24,000 nucleotides of DNA, from assembly GCF_048465575.1 (NCBI RefSeq), contig NZ_DBFWLG010000034.1, forward strand, positions 16,568-40,567, read 5' to 3'. Positions 1,513-21,982 of the stretch are shown here, in pieces. Position numbers and translations under genes: made by a program. This stretch comes from Alistipes sp. (GTDB taxonomy: Bacteria > Bacteroidota > Bacteroidia > Bacteroidales > Rikenellaceae). Every line of letters starts with the position of its first letter. Within the stretch, counting starts at the first letter, position 1. The notes beneath the pieces were generated by a model. It was not told the DNA's origin and made no database searches. It worked only from the letters and a program-made list of their open reading frames with translations.

Positions 1513-3882
1513 ATGAAATACCTGCTATCCCAAATTGCCGCGATCGTGGGCGGTGAAATGACGGGCTGCGACTCCGAGGTGCAGTCGGTGGTGACGGACA
1601 GCCGTTCGCTGACATGCGAACTGGGCGCTGCGCCCTTGTTCGTTGCCATGCGCGGTGCCAACCACGATTCGCACGACTTTGTCGCGCAGATGCGCGACCG
1701 CGGCGTCCGGGCCTTTCTGACCGAAAGGGAGGTGCCGGTGGCCGCGGGGTGCGGGTATGTCGTGGTGGAAAATGCCATCGAGGCTCTGCAACGGCTGGCG
1801 GCGCATCACCGCGCGCAGTTCCGGGGCAGGGTGGTTGCAATCACGGGTTCCAACGGCAAGACGATTATCAAGGAGTGGATCGCCGGGGAGTTGCCCCGGG
1901 AGGTGAAATGCTACCGCTCGCCCAAAAGCTACAACTCGCAGCTGGGGGTACCCCTGTCGGTGCTGATGATAGCGGGCGACGAGGAGCTGGCGCTTATCGA
2001 GGCGGGGATTTCCCGGCCCGGAGAGATGGAGCGGCTGGAGCGCGTGATTCGTCCCGATGCAGTGATCTTCACCTCGTTGGGCGACGCCCATCAGGAGAAT
2101 TTCCGCGACCTGGAACAAAAATGCGAGGAGAAGCTAATACTGGCCCGCCGGGCGCGGACGATCGTCTACCACAGTTTTTACGAACCGCTGGGACAGCTGG
2201 TCGCCGAGCGATTCGCAGACCGCGAAACGGTCGATGCCGCAACGTTTCCCGAGCCCGCCGCAACGGTTGCGGGTAACGCCCCCATGCGCCGCAACGCGCA
2301 ACTCGTCGAGGCGTTCTGCACCGCGACGGGCTATCCGGCCCCCGCATTTACCGCGGTTCCGAGCGTGGCCATGCGGCTCGAGGTGCGGGACGGGATCAAC
2401 GATTCGGTGCTGGTCAACGACGCCTACAACCTCGATCTGAACTCGCTGGCCCTGGCGCTGGACTACCTGCACAACGTGGCGATGGGACGGCCCCGGACGC
2501 TGGTGCTGTCGGACATTGCACAGAGCGGCTTTCGGGACGACGAACTGTATGGCCGCGTGGCGGAGCTGGTCGCCCGCGCGGGTATCGACCGGCTGGTCGG
2601 GGTAGGGCCCGAACTCCGGCGCCACGCGGCGCTTTTCGGGTGCGCGACGGAGTTTTACGCCACGACCGGAGAGTGCATCGAGCGCATGAGCCGCCGTGCC
2701 GTGGCCGGATGCGCCGTGCTCCTGAAAGGGGCGCGGGAATACCGCTTCGAGAAATTGGCACACGCCCTCGCGCGGCAGAGCCACACCACGGTGCTGGAGG
2801 TGGACCTCGATGCCATGATCCACAATCTCAACTATTTCCGCTCGCGCCTCGCATTCGGCACCCGCCTCGTGGCCATGGTCAAGGCGGGGTCGTACGGCAC
2901 GGGCGATTTCGAGGTCGCGCAGCTCTTGCAGCACCAGGGGGTCGACTACCTGGCCGTGGCGTTCGCCGACGAGGGCGTCCGGCTGCGCGAGCGGGGAATC
3001 ACGATGCCCGTGGTGGTGCTCAATGCCGATGCCGACAGTTTCGATCAGATGGTCGCAAACCGGCTGGAACCCGAGATATACAGCGTGCACTCGCTCAGGG
3101 CCTTCGCAGCGGCGGCTGCCCATGCGGGCGAGATGCGCTATCCGATCCACATCAAGCTCGATACGGGGATGCACCGGCTGGGATTCGCGGAGGAGGAGCT
3201 CGCGCCTCTCATCGAGGAGCTGGCTTCGACGCCCGAGGTGCGGGTGGTTACGGTCTTTTCGCATCTGAACTGCGCCGACATGCCCGGCGTGGAGGAGTAC
3301 ACGCGCGCGCAAATCGCCCGGTTCGACCGCATGAGCGCACGGCTGGCGGCGGCGCTGCCCTGTCCTGTACTGCGCCATACAGCCAACTCGGCGGCGATCG
3401 AGCGCTTCCCCGAGGCGCAGTTCGACATGTGCCGCCTCGGACTGGGGCTTTACGGCTTCGGCTGGGAGCACAACGCGGCGCTGCGCCCGGTGGCGACGCT
3501 CCGGACCCGCATCGTGCAGATCAAGCGCCTGGCGGTGGGTGAGGCAGTCGGCTATGGGCGGGCGCAGGTATTGCAGCGCGACAGCGTCATCGCCACCGTG
3601 CCCATCGGATATGCCGACGGGCTGGACCGCCACCTGGGGTGCGGCCGTTGGGCGATGCGGGTGAACGGGCGTCCGGCGCCCATCGTCGGGCGGGTCTGCA
3701 TGGACAGCTGCATGATCGACATCACGGACATTCCCGGCGTCGGCGAGGGCGACGAGGCGGTGATCTTCTCGCCCGAGCCGGGCAATGACCTCGAAACGAT
3801 GGCCCGCGTGCTCGACACGATTCCCTACGAGATCATGACCTCGGTCTCGGCCCGGGTGAAACGGATTTACCTCAAGGAGTAA
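1513..3882 (+). CDS. Bifunctional UDP-N-acetylmuramoyl-tripeptide--D-alanyl-D-alanine ligase (MurF-like) / alanine racemase fusion protein
   Basis: 789 aa. The N-terminal half has the Mur-ligase P-loop (AITGSNGKTIIKEW) and NDAYNLDLNS (MurF DAYNANP-like). The C-terminal half has the alanine racemase PLP-lysine motif (VAMVKAGSYGTG) and GRVCMDSCMIDIT. Confidence 0.93.
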   Translation: MKYLLSQIAAIVGGEMTGCDSEVQSVVTDSRSLTCELGAAPLFVAMRGANHDSHDFVAQMRDRGVRAFLTEREVPVAAGCGYVVVENAIEALQRLAAHHRAQFRGRVVAITGSNGKTIIKEWIAGELPREVKCYRSPKSYNSQLGVPLSVLMIAGDEELALIEAGISRPGEMERLERVIRPDAVIFTSLGDAHQENFRDLEQKCEEKLILARRARTIVYHSFYEPLGQLVAERFADRETVDAATFPEPAATVAGNAPMRRNAQLVEAFCTATGYPAPAFTAVPSVAMRLEVRDGINDSVLVNDAYNLDLNSLALALDYLHNVAMGRPRTLVLSDIAQSGFRDDELYGRVAELVARAGIDRLVGVGPELRRHAALFGCATEFYATTGECIERMSRRAVAGCAVLLKGAREYRFEKLAHALARQSHTTVLEVDLDAMIHNLNYFRSRLAFGTRLVAMVKAGSYGTGDFEVAQLLQHQGVDYLAVAFADEGVRLRERGITMPVVVLNADADSFDQMVANRLEPEIYSVHSLRAFAAAAAHAGEMRYPIHIKLDTGMHRLGFAEEELAPLIEELASTPEVRVVTVFSHLNCADMPGVEEYTRAQIARFDRMSARLAAALPCPVLRHTANSAAIERFPEAQFDMCRLGLGLYGFGWEHNAALRPVATLRTRIVQIKRLAVGEAVGYGRAQVLQRDSVIATVPIGYADGLDRHLGCGRWAMRVNGRPAPIVGRVCMDSCMIDITDIPGVGEGDEAVIFSPEPGNDLETMARVLDTIPYEIMTSVSARVKRIYLKE

Positions 3883-16475: not shown

Positions 16476-16519
16476 AGCGTTCGTATTTGTTTCGCTGCCG
16501 CATACTGCAAAGCGTGTGC

Positions 16520-16558
16520 AAAAACGGCAAGGCGCCCCGAAAAACGTTTCGGGACGCC
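16520..16558 (-). terminator. Stem-loop between the catalase and amylase genes
   Basis: On the - strand: GGCGTCCCGAAA cgtt TTTCGGGGCGCC (12-bp stem with one mismatch). The T5 run follows only after a 6-nt spacer. Confidence 0.45.
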
Positions 16559-16582: not shown

Positions 16583-17551
16583 TCAGTCCTGCTCGGCCGG
16601 CTCGCGGCGGCGACTCTTCGGGGCCTCGTCGTAGTCGGACCACTGGAGGTTCGAGGTGGGCATAGAACGCTTGATCTCCTGGCTGCGCTCCTTGCTCAGC
16701 CGCTTGTCGGCCGTGCGAACCGTGGAGGTCGTGCGGTCTGTGCCCACGGGTTTGAGGTCCGTCAGCCCCTCGGTGCGGACGACCTGCTCGTAGGGGTTCT
16801 CGACATACTGCCAGTCCTCGCCCAGTCCCGTGCTGACGCCTTCGTTCCACGGTCCGCGGGCCTCCTCGCCCATCGAGTGGTTGGAGTAGAGGTTGCTGTA
16901 ACGCGGGTCGCTTTGCAGCACGCCCGGCGGGAAATTGGGCTGAATGGTGTCCAGCGCGGCCTCGAACTGCTGGAAGTGGGCCACCTCGCGCGTCATCAGG
17001 AAATTGAGCGTGGCCTGCACGTCCTTGTCGTCGGTGAACTGCATGAGGTATTCGTAGACGATCTTGGCACGCGACTCGGCGGCGATGTCCGACCGCAGGT
17101 CGACCGTCAGATCGCTGTTGGCATTGACGTAGGCGCCCTGCCAGGGGAAGCCGTTGCTGTCCGTCAGGCGGGGGCCGCCGCCCGTCAGCACGCCGAACTG
17201 CGGATTGATCGAAAAGGCCGCATGGATCACGTCCTCCTTGCTGTTGCCCTCGCCGAAGACGTCGTTCTTCTCGGCGGCGTCCTTGAGGTTGCCGTTGACC
17301 CCGGCCAGCAGCATCTGGATGGTGGCGCCGACGATCTCGAGGTGCCCGAGCTCTTCGGTGGCGATGTCCATCAGCATGTCGTACTTGTCGGGATAGGGGT
17401 TGTGGCAGGCGAACGCCTGGACGAAATACTGCATGGCAGCTTTCAATTCGCCGTTCGGGCCGCCGAACTGCTCGAGCAAAAGGCGGGCGAAACGGGGGTC
17501 CGGGCGCGATACCCGGGCGTTGAACTGGAGTTCTTTGGAGTGGAAAAACAT
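16583..17551 (-). CDS. Manganese catalase family protein
   Basis: 322 aa. N-terminus MFFHSKELQFNARVSRPDPRFARLLLEQFGGPNGELKAAMQYFVQAF and the di-Mn ligand motif ATEELGHLE are typical of Mn-catalases (KatN/YdbD/CotJC family). Confidence 0.93.
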   Translation of the reverse strand: MFFHSKELQFNARVSRPDPRFARLLLEQFGGPNGELKAAMQYFVQAFACHNPYPDKYDMLMDIATEELGHLEIVGATIQMLLAGVNGNLKDAAEKNDVFGEGNSKEDVIHAAFSINPQFGVLTGGGPRLTDSNGFPWQGAYVNANSDLTVDLRSDIAAESRAKIVYEYLMQFTDDKDVQATLNFLMTREVAHFQQFEAALDTIQPNFPPGVLQSDPRYSNLYSNHSMGEEARGPWNEGVSTGLGEDWQYVENPYEQVVRTEGLTDLKPVGTDRTTSTVRTADKRLSKERSQEIKRSMPTSNLQWSDYDEAPKSRRREPAEQD

Positions 17552-17683
17552 ACAATTATCGTTTTAATTGGTTGAACTTGCGGCAGGGCCTGAATCGTCC
17601 GAAAAGGCACCGATCTGTTCCGTACAGGGCAAATGGCTTGCCAAAAAAAACGGTTTGCGAGGAGTTTGCGGTCCTTGAAACCC

Positions 17684-17712
17684 ACAAAAAAACGGCCGCC
17701 GACGCGGCCGTT
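17684..17712 (-). terminator. Rho-independent terminator of the S/Y/G/Q-rich protein gene
   Basis: On the - strand: ACGGCCGC gtcg GCGGCCGT immediately followed by TTTTTT, 14 nt after the stop codon. Confidence 0.75.
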
Positions 17713-17725
17713 ACTTGCGTTAGGA

Positions 17726-18397
17726 CTACTTGCAGCAGTCGGAACTCTTCTTTTCGGACGAGGAGCCGTAGCCCGATTCTTTCTCTTTCTCGGGATCGAG
17801 GCTGCCGCCGTGGCTCGAGCTCTGGCCTCCGCTGCAAGGGCTGCCCTGGCCATACTCTTTCTCGTTCTGGCCGTATTGACCATGCTCTTTCTGGCCCTGG
17901 GCGTACTGGCCGCTCTGGCTCTGCTGGCCATACTCCTGCTGGCCCTGGCCGTATTGGCTGCCCTGACCGTACTGGCCGCTCTGACCCTGCTGGCCGTACT
18001 CCTGCTGGCCCTGGCCATATTGGCTGCCCTGACCTTGCTGGCCATACTGACCGCTCTGCGAGGAGGAGCCGTGGCTCTGGCCCTGGCCGTATTGGCTGCT
18101 CTGACCGTACTGGCCGCTCTGGCCCTGCTGGCCCGACTGGTATTTGTCGCCCAAGCTCTCTTCGTTCATCTTGCTGCCGTAGCTCTGGCCCGAGCCGCTG
18201 TTCTGGTGTCCATAGGACGAGCCCGACTCGTCTTTCCACGACGAGCCGCCGGTCTGCTGCTCCTGATAGGACTTGTTCTCGGTGCCGGGATAGGGCTGGT
18301 CGCTCTGCGAGTTCTGGCTGCCCGATTCGTAGCCGTTGCCCGTCGAATTTTTCATCTTCTCACGATCTTCGCCGTACATGTTGTCTTTCTTTTCCAT
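17726..18397 (-). CDS. S/Y/G/Q-rich intrinsically disordered hydrophilin-like protein (no recognised family)
   Basis: 223 aa from MEKKDNMYGEDREKMKN (internal ATG of ORF 17726..18436). GC-rich third codon positions, its own terminator, and the same strand as the neighbouring stress genes. The sequence is dominated by (S/Q/E)YGQ motifs. Confidence 0.8.
   Translation of the reverse strand: MEKKDNMYGEDREKMKNSTGNGYESGSQNSQSDQPYPGTENKSYQEQQTGGSSWKDESGSSYGHQNSGSGQSYGSKMNEESLGDKYQSGQQGQSGQYGQSSQYGQGQSHGSSSQSGQYGQQGQGSQYGQGQQEYGQQGQSGQYGQGSQYGQGQQEYGQQSQSGQYAQGQKEHGQYGQNEKEYGQGSPCSGGQSSSHGGSLDPEKEKESGYGSSSEKKSSDCCK
17897..18028 (-). repeat. Intragenic tandem duplication, 2 x 66 nt (22-aa unit GSQYGQGQQEYGQQ(G/S)QSGQY(G/A)Q)
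   Basis: Units 17897-17962 and 17963-18028 differ at only a few nucleotides. More degenerate copies flank them. Confidence 0.9.
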
Positions 18398-18473
18398 AAT
18401 CGAAATTTTAGGTGGTTCTGCTCTATGAACATGCAAATCGCGTACAAAGAGCGGATGGACGGGACCGAAAATG

Positions 18474-18719
18474 CTACCGTCCGTAGGTGTTGTCGTGCCC
18501 CTCGGTCTTGACGACCTTGTTGTAGAGGCCCATGATCAGGAGCGGTGCCGCCCACTGGCCCACCATCAGCGCGGTGTGCTTGCGCCGGCCGTGCATCAGG
18601 CACATGGAAACGGTCAGGGCGCTCAGACCGGCTACAAGATAGACCATCGAAGGAATCTTCGAGGTCCGTTTTTCGACGGCAACGGTTGCGCTGCCCTCTT
18701 TGGATTTATCGTTGTACAT
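18474..18719 (-). CDS. Small (81 aa) two-helix membrane protein, hypothetical
   Basis: Two hydrophobic segments (IPSMVYLVAGLSALTVSMCLM and ALMVGQWAAPLLIMGLY) between charged termini. Third codon positions are GC-rich. Confidence 0.7.
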   Translation of the reverse strand: MYNDKSKEGSATVAVEKRTSKIPSMVYLVAGLSALTVSMCLMHGRRKHTALMVGQWAAPLLIMGLYNKVVKTEGHDNTYGR

Positions 18720-20173: not shown

Positions 20174-20370
20174 CGCGGATCGGATTCGCTCACCGGATGC
20201 ACCGCATTGGAAAACACGGGATAAAGGATGCGGAAAATTTTTCGGATGATTTCCGGCCGCCGACCCGTCGGGCGGGAGAAGCCTTTCGGCAGCTGTTTTG
20301 CAGGCAGGCATGCGATGAAAAAGTCACGCTCGGGCTTCCGAAAGCCTTGCGACGCACGAATCACACCAAG

Positions 20371-21234
20371 ATGAACCGAACGACGAAAAACCTGCTCGCC
20401 TTGCAGCGGGACGAAATCACCTTGTGCGAAACCTATCGCCGCCTGGCCCGCTCCGAGAAAGATGCCGGGCGCCAGGCCGTGTTCGTACGCCTTTTGCAGG
20501 ACGAGATACGGCATTGCGATGCGCTGCGCAGCCACACCGGGTGCGAGGTGGCGCCCGATGTCAAGCGGGTCGTACGCTATGTCTGGACGGGACGGATGCT
20601 GGGGCCTGCGTTCGTGGCGCGGCAGATGGAGCGGCGCGAAAAGGGGACCGAGCTGGGGTATGCCCGCTACTGCAAAGGGGCCGAGTTCGTGCAAATCGGC
20701 CTCGACGAACGACGGCACGGCGAGGAACTGACCCGTCTGGCCGCCGGGGTGCGGCTCTCGTACATGAGTTCCGTGGTGCTGGGGCTGAACGATGCGCTGG
20801 TCGAATTCACGGGGGCGCTCGCGGGCTTCACGCTGGCGTTGAACGATCCGCGTCTGGTGGCGCTCACGGGCGGAATCACGGGTATTGCGGCGGCTCTTTC
20901 GATGTCCGCCTCGGAATACCTCTCGACCAAGACCGACCGCAAGGGCGAAAAGCATCCGCTGCGTGCGGCCGGTTGTACGGGTGCGGCCTACATCCTCACC
21001 GTCGGGATACTCATAGCGCCCTACCTGATTTTCTCCGATGCGCTGGTGGCGTTGGGCGTCATGCTCGCGGCGGCGCTGCTCGTGATCGCTCTGTTCAACT
21101 ACTATTATGCGGTGGTGCGGCGCGAGAGTTTTCGGAGGCGGTTTCTCGAAATGGCCATCCTCAGCTTCGGCATTGCCGGGATCAGCTTTTTGATCGGCTA
21201 CCTGCTCAAGTTGATCGTCGGGGTCGACGTATAG
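20371..21234 (+). CDS. Ferritin-like domain / VIT1 (CCC1) family iron-manganese transporter
   Basis: 287 aa from MNRTTKNLLALQRDE. The N-terminal four-helix di-iron pattern is E, ExxH, E, ExxH (QRDEITL, QDEIRH, ERREKG, DERRHG). The VIT1 membrane domain follows (VVLGLNDALVEFTGALAG, SMSASEYLSTK). An upstream ATG at 20197 is an alternative start, but the added 58 codons have a clearly lower third-position GC. Confidence 0.85.
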   Translation: MNRTTKNLLALQRDEITLCETYRRLARSEKDAGRQAVFVRLLQDEIRHCDALRSHTGCEVAPDVKRVVRYVWTGRMLGPAFVARQMERREKGTELGYARYCKGAEFVQIGLDERRHGEELTRLAAGVRLSYMSSVVLGLNDALVEFTGALAGFTLALNDPRLVALTGGITGIAAALSMSASEYLSTKTDRKGEKHPLRAAGCTGAAYILTVGILIAPYLIFSDALVALGVMLAAALLVIALFNYYYAVVRRESFRRRFLEMAILSFGIAGISFLIGYLLKLIVGVDV

Positions 21235-21301: not shown

Positions 21302-21631
21302 TCAGTCGTGCTTCTCGTGGAAGCGGTTGGTGGCCTGATCGACCTTTTCGTCGAACCAGTTGGAGGTTTTGGTCGCCCCCTCCTCGACCTTGTTCTTGAT
21401 CTTCGTTGCAGCTTCGTCGATCTTGCCGCCGGCCTTGTCCATCCCCGAGCGGGTCTCGTTCTCGGCTTTCTTGAACCCCTCTTCGGTGCGGTGGGCCGCC
21501 TGCTGCCCTTTCTCCTCGAGGGTGTGTTCGGCCTCGCGGCCGTGCTCTTCGGCCCGGTTCACCGCTTTTTCGGCGTGGTCGTGCAGGGAGTCGGCGAAAC
21601 GCTCATGGCGTGTGGTGTCGTCGTGTTTCAT
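21302..21631 (-). CDS. His-rich, highly charged helical hydrophilin (LEA/CsbD-like stress protein; family not recognised)
   Basis: 109 aa, MKHDDTTRHERFADSLHDHAEKAVNRAEEHGREAEHTLEEKG.... It has no hydrophobic segment and, by my count, nine His. It starts 13 nt after the glsB-type gene. Confidence 0.8.
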   Translation of the reverse strand: MKHDDTTRHERFADSLHDHAEKAVNRAEEHGREAEHTLEEKGQQAAHRTEEGFKKAENETRSGMDKAGGKIDEAATKIKNKVEEGATKTSNWFDEKVDQATNRFHEKHD

Positions 21632-21644
21632 GGTGTAATGTGTT

Positions 21645-21908
21645 TTAACGTGTAGTGGTTGTTCTGCTGTGACGCGTGATGAGCGATACGATCCACAGGA
21701 GGACCACCGCTCCGATGACCGAGGCGATCAGCGTGCCGAACGTTCCGGTCGGCACCCATCCGAAGAGGGAGACGAGCCAGCCGCCCAAAAGGCCGCCGAT
21801 CAGTCCGACGATCAAATTTATCAGAAGGCCGGACCCGCCGCCCTTGACAATCAGGTTGGCGATCCATCCGGCCACCAGACCTATGAGCAAATACCAGAGA
21901 AAATACAT
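21645..21908 (-). CDS. GlsB/YeaQ/YmgE-family (transglycosylase-associated) stress-response membrane protein
   Basis: 87 aa from MYFLWYLLIGLVAGWIANLIVKGGGSGLLINLIVGLIGGLLGGWL, the typical Gly-zipper three-helix pattern of PF04226-type proteins. This uses the internal ATG of ORF 21645..21944. Confidence 0.88.
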   Translation of the reverse strand: MYFLWYLLIGLVAGWIANLIVKGGGSGLLINLIVGLIGGLLGGWLVSLFGWVPTGTFGTLIASVIGAVVLLWIVSLITRHSRTTTTR

Positions 21909-21982
21909 AGTTTTGTTGTGTTGGTTACGCACCCGAATGTGCAAAATCCGTACCCACGGAGATTATCCGACGCAAATAGATG

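Follow-up and report, generated by a model that had tools for sequence, protein, structure and literature searches.

Hydrophilins are operationally defined by a glycine content above 6% and a hydrophilicity index above 1 (Garay-Arroyo et al. 2000, as cited in PMC5437024). Bacterial hydrophilins are few, their protective mode is poorly understood and only a handful (YciG, DtpA/DtpB) has been tested. In the sigma-S locus yciGFE(katN) of Salmonella, the hydrophilin YciG is encoded together with the manganese catalase KatN (PMC5437024), and the desiccation cluster of A. baumannii comprises the hydrophilins DtpA and DtpB together with KatE and DtpC; of these, DtpA shields enzymes from drying and heat (PMC13232832, PMC13552118). 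Here we describe a gene for a very hydrophilic protein of 223 amino acids (aa) on a 24,000-nucleotide (nt) stretch of Alistipes sp. DNA (contig NZ_DBFWLG010000034.1, positions 16,568 to 40,567; the whole stretch is called the window below). It is located directly upstream of a manganese catalase gene, as stated in the original prediction made from the DNA alone, and the catalase starts 174 nt downstream of it. The locus repeats the Salmonella/Acinetobacter pairing of hydrophilin and catalase, with an unrelated sequence and another promoter type. A bacterial hydrophilin beside a catalase is an already known kind of arrangement; new are the family itself, which is unannotated, gut-specific and found in a genus of important commensals, the eukaryote-like array of tyrosine stickers with its valence series, and the -24/-12-type promoter context. 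We read the protein as a putative cytoplasmic, disordered stress hydrophilin that would be co-regulated with the manganese catalase and belongs to a small unannotated Alistipes family, an interpretation to which we give about an even chance.

The open reading frame (ORF) of 223 codons, followed by a TAG stop codon at 17726-17728, is a real gene on the minus strand, as documented by its codon-position pattern, the conserved frame and start, an independent gene call and a terminator (Table 1). Its GC content at codon positions 1/2/3 amounts to 0.57/0.45/0.82, and the nine neighbouring genes range from 0.52-0.66/0.37-0.45/0.72-0.89. The third-position value (GC3) is 0.48-0.60 in four overlapping shadow ORFs on both strands, including a 292-aa leucine/alanine-rich ORF on the plus strand (0.56). 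In an identical public contig (ENA ERZ14651271 NODE_64) an independent gene caller gives the same 223-aa ORF; neither its 223-aa nor its 236-aa version has an exact match in the protein collection, although contig and gene call exist. The ATG at 18397 represents the start because the N-terminal family signature block begins there, and a TTG start at 18436 was ruled out since the homologues begin at the ATG. Frame, ATG and A-rich leader are kept among the homologues. The intrinsic terminator begins 13 nt past the stop codon and consists of a 9-bp stem with seven GC pairs followed by T7 (17712-17691; folding energy -28.5 kcal/mol, z = -4.9 versus shuffles). Minus-strand coding, the strong terminator shortly after the stop and the A-rich start region had all been predicted, and each is corroborated by these data. 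Further minus-strand intrinsic terminators follow the spondin gene (18766-18739) and the catalase (16562-16527), and an Rfam search of the whole window gave no match.

One alternative is that the gene has no functional product at all, either because it is a slippage-prone, fast-evolving spacer ORF or because the leucine/alanine-rich plus-strand ORF is the real product. The family is indeed narrow and very variable in length (85-257 aa), whole-protein searches are empty, and the antisense frame is open in every homologue. The latter observation is trivial, because TTA, CTA and TCA codons are nearly absent from a leucine-poor, GC3-rich gene. The plus-strand ORF and two other shadow ORFs were ruled out by their GC3. 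Moreover, conservation across species extends to all three sequence blocks (N-terminal, central, C-terminal) and to ATG, leader and upstream element, all indels among family members keep the frame, and the gene has a dedicated terminator, which makes a missing function very improbable.

The protein is dominated by glycine (46 residues, 20.6%), glutamine (45, 20.2%), serine (42, 18.8%) and tyrosine (19, 8.5%), followed by glutamate (18, 8.1%) and lysine (15, 6.7%). It contains two leucines, a single tryptophan, alanine and arginine, four histidines and 3.6% asparagine; isoleucine, valine and phenylalanine are absent. If a hydrophilicity index above 1 is taken as a mean Kyte-Doolittle hydropathy below -1, both its glycine content and its grand average of hydropathy (GRAVY; -1.84, and -1.98 in the repeat region) lie within the hydrophilin definition. 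The original prediction was accurate in its description of the composition and in noting the fit to the hydrophilin idea. The protein has a pI of 4.9, a negative net charge and a charged fraction of 0.18, which rises to 27-29% in the N- and C-terminal thirds. From the family alignment, AlphaFold2 predicted zero secondary structure, a mean predicted local distance difference test score (pLDDT) of 46 and a predicted template modelling score (pTM) of 0.12, and the protein is predicted to be fully disordered. A signal peptide, a lipobox or a hydrophobic segment was not found in the 223-aa sequence; the protein is accordingly regarded as cytoplasmic, and a secreted or surface protein was ruled out on the same grounds. 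Searches with Pfam and NCBIfam models, including KGG/YciG, GsiB/LEA_5 and CsbD, retrieved no family at E <= 1, the KGG tripeptide is absent from the sequence, and a PDB sequence search at E <= 10 produced only a chance match (E = 2.7). The claim that the repeats match neither those of YciG nor those of GsiB is thus confirmed, and in none of these collections did homologues from a characterised family with a defined fold turn up.

Table 1. Positions of the 223-aa gene, its parts and signals, and of neighbouring genes in the window.
Feature	Position	Strand	Sequence or detail	Basis
Coding sequence of the disordered (predicted) hydrophilic 223-aa protein	17726..18397	-		ATG-to-TAG ORF, translation, GC3, public gene call, homologues in same slot
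N-terminal block, aa 1-17	18347..18397	-	MEKKDNMYGEDREKMKN; family signature M-x-K-x-N-x-M-Y/H-G-E-x-R-E	Alignments A1, A2
Conserved central block, aa 74-87	18137..18178	-	GSKMNEESLGDKYQ; short members end just past it	A1, A2, family table
Lineage-specific x-Y-G-Q repeat region, aa 88-184	17846..18136	-	Absent from ~95-aa members	Composition, Tandem Repeats Finder, Tyr patterning
Two best-kept 66-nt (22-aa) copies	17963-18028 and 17897-17962 (span 17897..18028)	-		Pairwise identity
Conserved C-terminal block, aa 185-211	17765..17845	-	GSPCSGGQSSSHGGSLDPEKEKESGYG; close relatives: GCGCKGGSGSLDPEK...SY	A2; P0009 and P0010 sequences
Window-specific C-terminal tail, aa 212-223	17729..17764	-	SSSEKKSSDCCK, with Cys-Cys pair	Only in window protein within A1, A2
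A-rich leader abutting the ATG	18398..18417	-	CCTAAAATTTCGATT; kept as ATTAAAAATTACGATT in homologous loci	Upstream sequences compared
Intrinsic terminator after the 223-aa gene	17691..17712	-		Hairpin and T tract, folding energy
-24/-12-like element, 35 nt before ATG of the 223-aa gene	18433..18447	-	TTGTACGCGATTTGC	Non-canonical variant (GG to TG) of catalase element
Canonical sigma-54-type -24/-12 element, 77 nt before ATG of the Mn catalase	17629..17643	-	TGGCAAGCCATTTGC	Sequence, GG-to-GC spacing
Third related element, before GH13 amylase	16507-16521	-	TTGCACACGCTTTGC	Pattern match
Mn catalase, constant downstream neighbour	16583..17551	-	Named manganese catalase family protein	Pfam PF05067, E = 2e-66
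81-aa two-helix membrane protein, constant upstream neighbour	18474..18719	-	Bacteroidales-wide family	Gene order in loci
Spondin-domain lipoprotein, 415 aa	18785-20032	-		NF038123, E = 4e-51
VIT1-family transporter with N-terminal ferritin/rubrerythrin-like region	20197-21234	+		Domain matches
109-aa helical hydrophilic protein, Lys/Glu/Ala-rich	21302-21631	-		Weak phasin, apolipoprotein, YtxH-like matches
Transgly_assoc (GlsB/YeaQ/YmgE-type) stress membrane protein	21645-21944	-		Domain match

A comparison with the described systems illustrates both the kinship in kind and the distance in sequence. GsiB/group 1 LEA proteins and CsbD of Firmicutes are repeat-built hydrophilic stress proteins of alternative-sigma regulons, but the window protein has no LEA_5, CsbD or KGG match, and its repeats consist of tyrosine and glutamine instead of charged 20-mers. 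Like the protein described here, YciG is a small glycine-rich, hydrophilic and disordered stress protein that is encoded beside a manganese catalase and preceded by an alternative-sigma promoter (PMC5437024). The Alistipes protein differs by its lack of the KGG repeat, its acidic rather than basic character, its tyrosine/glutamine repeats, its length of 223 versus about 60 aa, its origin from another phylum and a -24/-12-like instead of a sigma-S promoter. DtpA and DtpB are likewise bacterial hydrophilins clustered with a catalase and were adopted as the functional model, but no sequence similarity was detected, the catalase of A. baumannii is the haem enzyme KatE instead of a manganese catalase, and their descriptions contain no tyrosine-repeat array (PMC13232832, PMC13552118).

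The family escaped direct searches. No match was obtained with the whole protein among 5.8 billion proteins at E <= 1e-3, where the score was probably removed by composition correction, and a metagenome scan with the window protein as query yielded 193 pattern matches, none of which was confirmed. It was found by anchoring on the manganese catalase, with one genome per species, and then reading the slot upstream. A very hydrophilic ORF occupies this slot at the Alistipes loci L002-L007 and L010 (also L082 and L083), and a phmmer search with the window protein against the fetched loci retrieved L007 at E = 2e-4. The profile derived from the slot sequences recovered eight clusters from the 5.8-billion collection, including P0009 (206 aa) and P0010 (185 aa), to which the window protein is 49-51% identical. 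Among 1.84 billion representatives, searched exhaustively with a profile, only 22 clusters reached E <= 1e-3, and all taxon-labelled family members belong to Alistipes. This search, of a type proposed in the original prediction, documents that the protein does not stand alone. The recovery of the window protein by the family profile (1.7e-27) is circular, as it represents one row of the alignment A2 behind the profile. The alignment begins at position 1 in nearly all members. Many database "members" (P0008, P0015, P0018, P0019, P0021-P0027 and P0029) stem from metagenome contigs of low coverage and represent frameshifted or chimeric predictions, in one example with the N-terminal block joined to unrelated sequence; family-size counts from protein databases are therefore inflated.

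The family members share a fixed slot between the genes for a 76-81-aa membrane protein and the manganese catalase; the contigs of P0009 and P0017 harbor, in this order, the genes for VIT1, the spondin lipoprotein, the 76-aa membrane protein, the hydrophilin and the manganese catalase. The anatomy of the family starts with the N-terminal signature, at which residues 1-14 of the window protein, MEKKDNMYGEDREK, align with all members. The central DNSGMHAGG..GSSY block is degenerate in the window protein, which reads ENKSYQEQQTGGSSW instead and retains only the GSS motif and an aromatic residue. It is followed by a G-S-K/R-M-N-E-E-S/G-L block and, in the longer forms, by a C-terminal G(C)GC..GSLDPEK...S-Y block. 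The commonest form of about 95 aa ends just past MNEESLKQK and has no repeats; it accounts for 109 matches in human-gut metagenomes and for the majority of the 38 distinct sequences tabulated. These short members carry only three or four tyrosines, and the window protein has the most among the members tabulated. A. timonensis DSM 25383 (L003) is one carrier of the short form.

A minority of lineages carries repeat arrays, which are inserted behind the MNEES block. The comparison of repeat number, initially suggested among strains, was run across lineages and revealed different unit lengths: 66 nt in the window, 48 nt in L082 (P0009), 21/42 nt in L083 (P0017), and 21-nt (SEKYGQS x 6) plus 12/36-nt units in L006. 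Every array keeps TACGGCCAG, the codon string for Y-G-Q, and the number of YGQ motifs within the family is 10 (window), 9, 5, 4 or 0. The array is therefore a lineage-specific extension that has arisen repeatedly on an older small protein, and its Y-G-Q unit is what persists through the independent expansions. It is an add-on and not the functional core, because most members are about 95 aa long and free of repeats. The graded natural series from the repeat-free 95-aa form to 10 YGQ motifs raises the question of whether the tyrosine-sticker region adds condensation or gelation to a protective disordered protein.

About half of the family members have a pair of cysteines (GCGC, CGC or CC) close to the C-terminus, a feature that the ~95-aa forms lack. 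GCGC is found in P0009, P0010, P0005, P0007, P0012 and L010, and CGC in L016, L018 and L078. The window protein contains a cysteine at aa 188 (17834-17836) and a terminal pair at aa 221-222 (17732-17737), its end reading ...SSDCCK. This CC-K terminus had been singled out as an oddity; it exists, but with GCGC or CGC in about half of the family it is not isolated. The recurrent pair could serve in metal binding or as a redox switch, and the whole protein might then bind metals or buffer redox changes, for instance as a chaperone or store of Mn/Fe that serves the catalase and the VIT1 transporter, with the cysteines and the side chains of histidine, glutamate and aspartate as ligands. This explanation would account for the recurrence of the pair, for some histidine-rich relatives (10-11 His) and for the adjacency of a manganese enzyme and a VIT1 transporter that carries a ferritin-like domain. 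We nevertheless regard it as unlikely: cysteine is missing and histidines number only one to three in about half of the members, among them the abundant gut forms of ~95 aa, the four histidines of the window protein are few, no metal-binding domain was matched in Pfam or NCBIfam, and manganese catalase is not known to need any chaperone.

A different hydrophilic protein of 87-122 aa occupies the slot before the manganese catalase in other Alistipes lineages (L016:5518-5781, L018:5444-5779, L078:5414-5782). It has the N-terminus M-D-K-I-N-x-x-Y-G-E-x-x-D-K-M, helical DKVDNAA-type repeats in the middle and a C-terminal CGC pair, and probably represents a diverged relative, with a profile E-value of 4.8 that is not significant.

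The repeat region of the window protein was resolved by Tandem Repeats Finder as 3.5 copies of a 66-nt period with 77% matches (17894-18133). The two best-kept units share 20 of 22 amino acids and 60 of 66 nt, the latter counted for 17960-18025 versus 17894-17959, one codon out of the unit register; two of the six nucleotide differences are synonymous changes of tyrosine codons. The near-identical 22-aa duplication reported from the sequence is therefore real, but its recent age holds only in a limited sense, because the best copies are 9% diverged and the argument is left with the closest relative being devoid of the duplication. Residues 87-185 consist of about 36% glutamine, 27% glycine, 14% serine and 11% tyrosine. 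The four residues together make up 88% of this region at a charged fraction of 0.07, compared with 68% of the whole protein at 0.18; in low-complexity domains of the FUS family they amount to about 80%, with hardly any charge. Tyrosines are found in a [S/Q/E]-Y-G context in 12 of 19 cases (mostly Q-Y-G-Q) and in an x-Y-G context in 14 of 19, so that the count of 19 given in the original prediction is right and its "nearly all" is too high. The strict [G/S]-Y-[G/S] motif applies to three (SYG at 62 and 73, GYG at 210). Tyrosines recur every 6-15 residues in the repeat region (patterning z = -3.2), and the aromatic spacing of the whole protein, with a minimum distance of 6 between tyrosines, is more even than in all 5000 shuffles (z = -3.6); the non-repeat N-terminal part has a z of -2.1. 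Even aromatic dispersion is a known pattern of phase-separating prion-like domains.

Sup35-type yeast prion domains (PQGGYQQYN) also exhibit imperfect short repeats rich in glutamine, glycine and tyrosine within a disordered region, but asparagine is scarce in the window protein and its repeat region is not joined to a folded functional domain. The likeness to FUS/EWS/TAF15 concerns the composition of aa 87-185, compared with about 25% glycine, 24% serine, 20% glutamine and 13% tyrosine in FUS 1-214, and the even spacing of tyrosines, whose number sets the phase-separation threshold and whose valence sets the phase behaviour of FUS (PMC5704491). In contrast to FUS, the predominant motif is Q/E-Y-G-Q, the flanks are 27-29% charged, homology and an RNA-binding domain are missing, and the gene resides in a stress locus of a bacterium. 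The FUS/prion-like character that had been proposed is thus valid for the composition of aa 87-185 and for tyrosine spacing and fails for the strict motif, the RNA-binding part and homology; the resemblance is compositional, and the full-length protein is 18% charged. A FUS-type scaffold of RNA or nucleic-acid condensates, that is, a functional analogue of the low-complexity domains of these proteins (FUS, EWS and TAF15; FET) that organise RNA granules, would fit the composition and tyrosine patterning of the repeat region. It is scarcely credible for a protein with negative net charge and a pI of 4.9 that has no RNA-binding domain, RGG or basic tract, carries the [G/S]Y[G/S] motif at so few of its tyrosines, has no related PDB chain at E <= 10 and is encoded among stress and metal genes rather than genes of RNA metabolism.

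The upstream regions provide a link between the hydrophilin and the catalase. Elements related to the sigma-54 -24/-12 consensus (as in PMC2831329) precede three consecutive genes (hydrophilin, catalase, amylase; Table 1). The pattern T[GT]G[CT]A-N6-TTGC was found three times in the window versus 0.40 expected, always on the minus strand, and each match is intergenic and just upstream of one of these genes. Across the loci the canonical catalase element (consensus TTTTTTGGCAAgnnTTTTGCa) is located 77-130 nt upstream of the catalase ATG. TGGCA-N6-TTGC occurs at most 200 nt upstream of the manganese catalase in 20 of 110 loci, compared with 0.0024 per 200 nt as background, and of the 31 matches across 2.5 Mb, 20 sit upstream of this gene. 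Besides the window, the loci with the canonical element there include L008, L009, L011, L013-L016, L018, L019, L021, L023-L025, L030-L032, L078 and L082. The hydrophilin-type variant is kept at the same distance before the hydrophilin gene in L082, and TTGTACG-N4-TTGC is found 31-35 nt before the ATG of the differently built slot gene in L016, L018 and L078. This distribution suggests that the manganese catalase of Alistipes depends on RpoN and an enhancer-binding protein. Bacteroidales do have rpoN, e.g., PGN_1202 of P. gingivalis (PMC11225630). In the literature we found neither a description of a sigma-54-type element upstream of the Alistipes manganese catalase nor anything relevant on this catalase or on RpoN promoters in Bacteroides.

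We infer from the related elements that hydrophilin and catalase share a regulator, and hydrophilin, catalase and amylase possibly form one regulon in which protection from stress is coupled to glucan metabolism. Species that carry the short form have the three genes at distances of 40-90 nt and no -24/-12-like elements between them; there they probably constitute one operon. The Bacteroides -33 TTTG / -7 TAnnTTTG promoter was sought by eye upstream of the 223-aa gene, with no convincing match. A further observation concerns the variant element. In L020 (2105-2119) and L028 (5897-5911) it lies directly before the manganese catalase (TTGTACG...TTTGC) and the hydrophilin gene is absent, which is consistent with a loss of this gene that left its promoter in front of the catalase. 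The third related element, upstream of the amylase gene (TTGCAC/TTGCAT-N5-TTTGC), is kept just past the catalase terminator in L002-L005 and L083.

The proposed function can be outlined as follows. The hydrophilin would be made together with the manganese catalase once the anaerobe is exposed to oxygen, peroxide, starvation or drying, and in bulk it would act as a protective polymer that shields proteins and membranes or replaces the water around them, a mode of action demonstrated for other hydrophilins of bacteria. In the lineage of the window only, the array would supply about 11 evenly spaced tyrosine "stickers" in a nearly uncharged Q/G/S spacer; rising concentration could then lead to multivalent self-association via tyrosine into a condensate or gel, and the length of the array would tune this behaviour. 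The most far-reaching version of this model, namely a bacterial hydrophilin that independently evolved a FUS-like sticker-spacer module, forms a reversible condensate or gel in a stressed gut anaerobe, is co-induced with the manganese catalase from sigma-54-like promoters and has its valence set by repeat expansion, appears doubtful to us. Its striking part, phase separation, concerns few lineages only. If true, the members with 0, 4, 5, 9 or 10 YGQ motifs would represent a natural experiment that ties tyrosine valence to phase behaviour and stress survival. The protein may also be relevant to the survival of Alistipes and other strict anaerobes in air and during drying on their way between hosts.

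Several points weigh against the hydrophilin interpretation and its extension. Most members have no repeats, so that the core function cannot require the array, and the charged N- and C-terminal thirds may oppose condensation. The variant element before the hydrophilin gene lacks the GG that is normally required by sigma-54, so that the presumed shared regulator may be sigma-54 or another factor. Searches of Pfam, NCBIfam, PDB and the 5.8-billion protein collection revealed no sequence relation to any characterised hydrophilin. The function is argued for all family members from composition and context only, and that desiccation matters to an anaerobe of the gut is an assumption.

The tyrosines could also be read chemically. 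A sacrificial antioxidant whose tyrosines scavenge radicals, or a peroxide-triggered scaffold in which they form dityrosine links, would yield a covalent gel comparable to resilin or tyrosine-rich spore-coat proteins. The 19 tyrosines are exposed if the chain is disordered as predicted, the gene adjoins that of a peroxide-handling enzyme, and selection keeps tyrosine in every independent array. However, short members have only three or four tyrosines, the locus offers neither a peroxidase nor a laccase as partner, the neighbouring catalase would reduce the level of H2O2 instead of using it, and we know of no precedent in Bacteroidota, so that we consider such a role quite improbable.

The gene order on the minus strand is spondin lipoprotein, 81-aa membrane protein, 223-aa hydrophilin, manganese catalase and GH13 alpha-amylase. 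Two flanking proteins are recorded as Alistipes sp., WP_418992408 (manganese catalase) and WP_418992410 (hypothetical protein). The stress and metal context of the hydrophilin gene comprises the manganese catalase, the VIT1 transporter, the Transgly_assoc protein, the 109-aa hydrophilic protein and a flavodiiron protein nearby; the remaining genes of the window are of the housekeeping type (Smr, MurF-Alr, GrpE, DnaJ, MutL, rhomboid). The locus is a chromosomal stress cluster and not a mobile element.

The 81-aa neighbour has two predicted membrane helices and the motif GQWAAPLLIMGLYNK[IV]VKTEGHD, is without a Pfam model, and is one member of a Bacteroidales family that comprises at least 164 clusters (Alistipes, Tannerellaceae, Dysgonomonas, Prevotella). 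A pairing of membrane protein and hydrophilin beyond Alistipes was ruled out: the 76-aa gene of Dysgonomonas, Prevotella and Tannerellaceae is not followed by a hydrophilin or catalase gene, and the pairing is for this reason Alistipes-specific. The spondin lipoprotein heads the gene row in all Alistipes loci examined. The VIT1 transporter, which with its ferritin-like region resembles membrane-bound ferritin-type Fe/Mn exporters, is divergent to the lipoprotein-hydrophilin-catalase genes, and its position is kept in L082. The 109-aa protein adjoins the Transgly_assoc protein and thus provides a second pairing of a membrane protein with a hydrophilic one in the same cluster. Finally, a single 789-aa ORF at 1513-3882 on the plus strand encodes a fusion of MurF-like Mur ligase domains with an entire alanine racemase.

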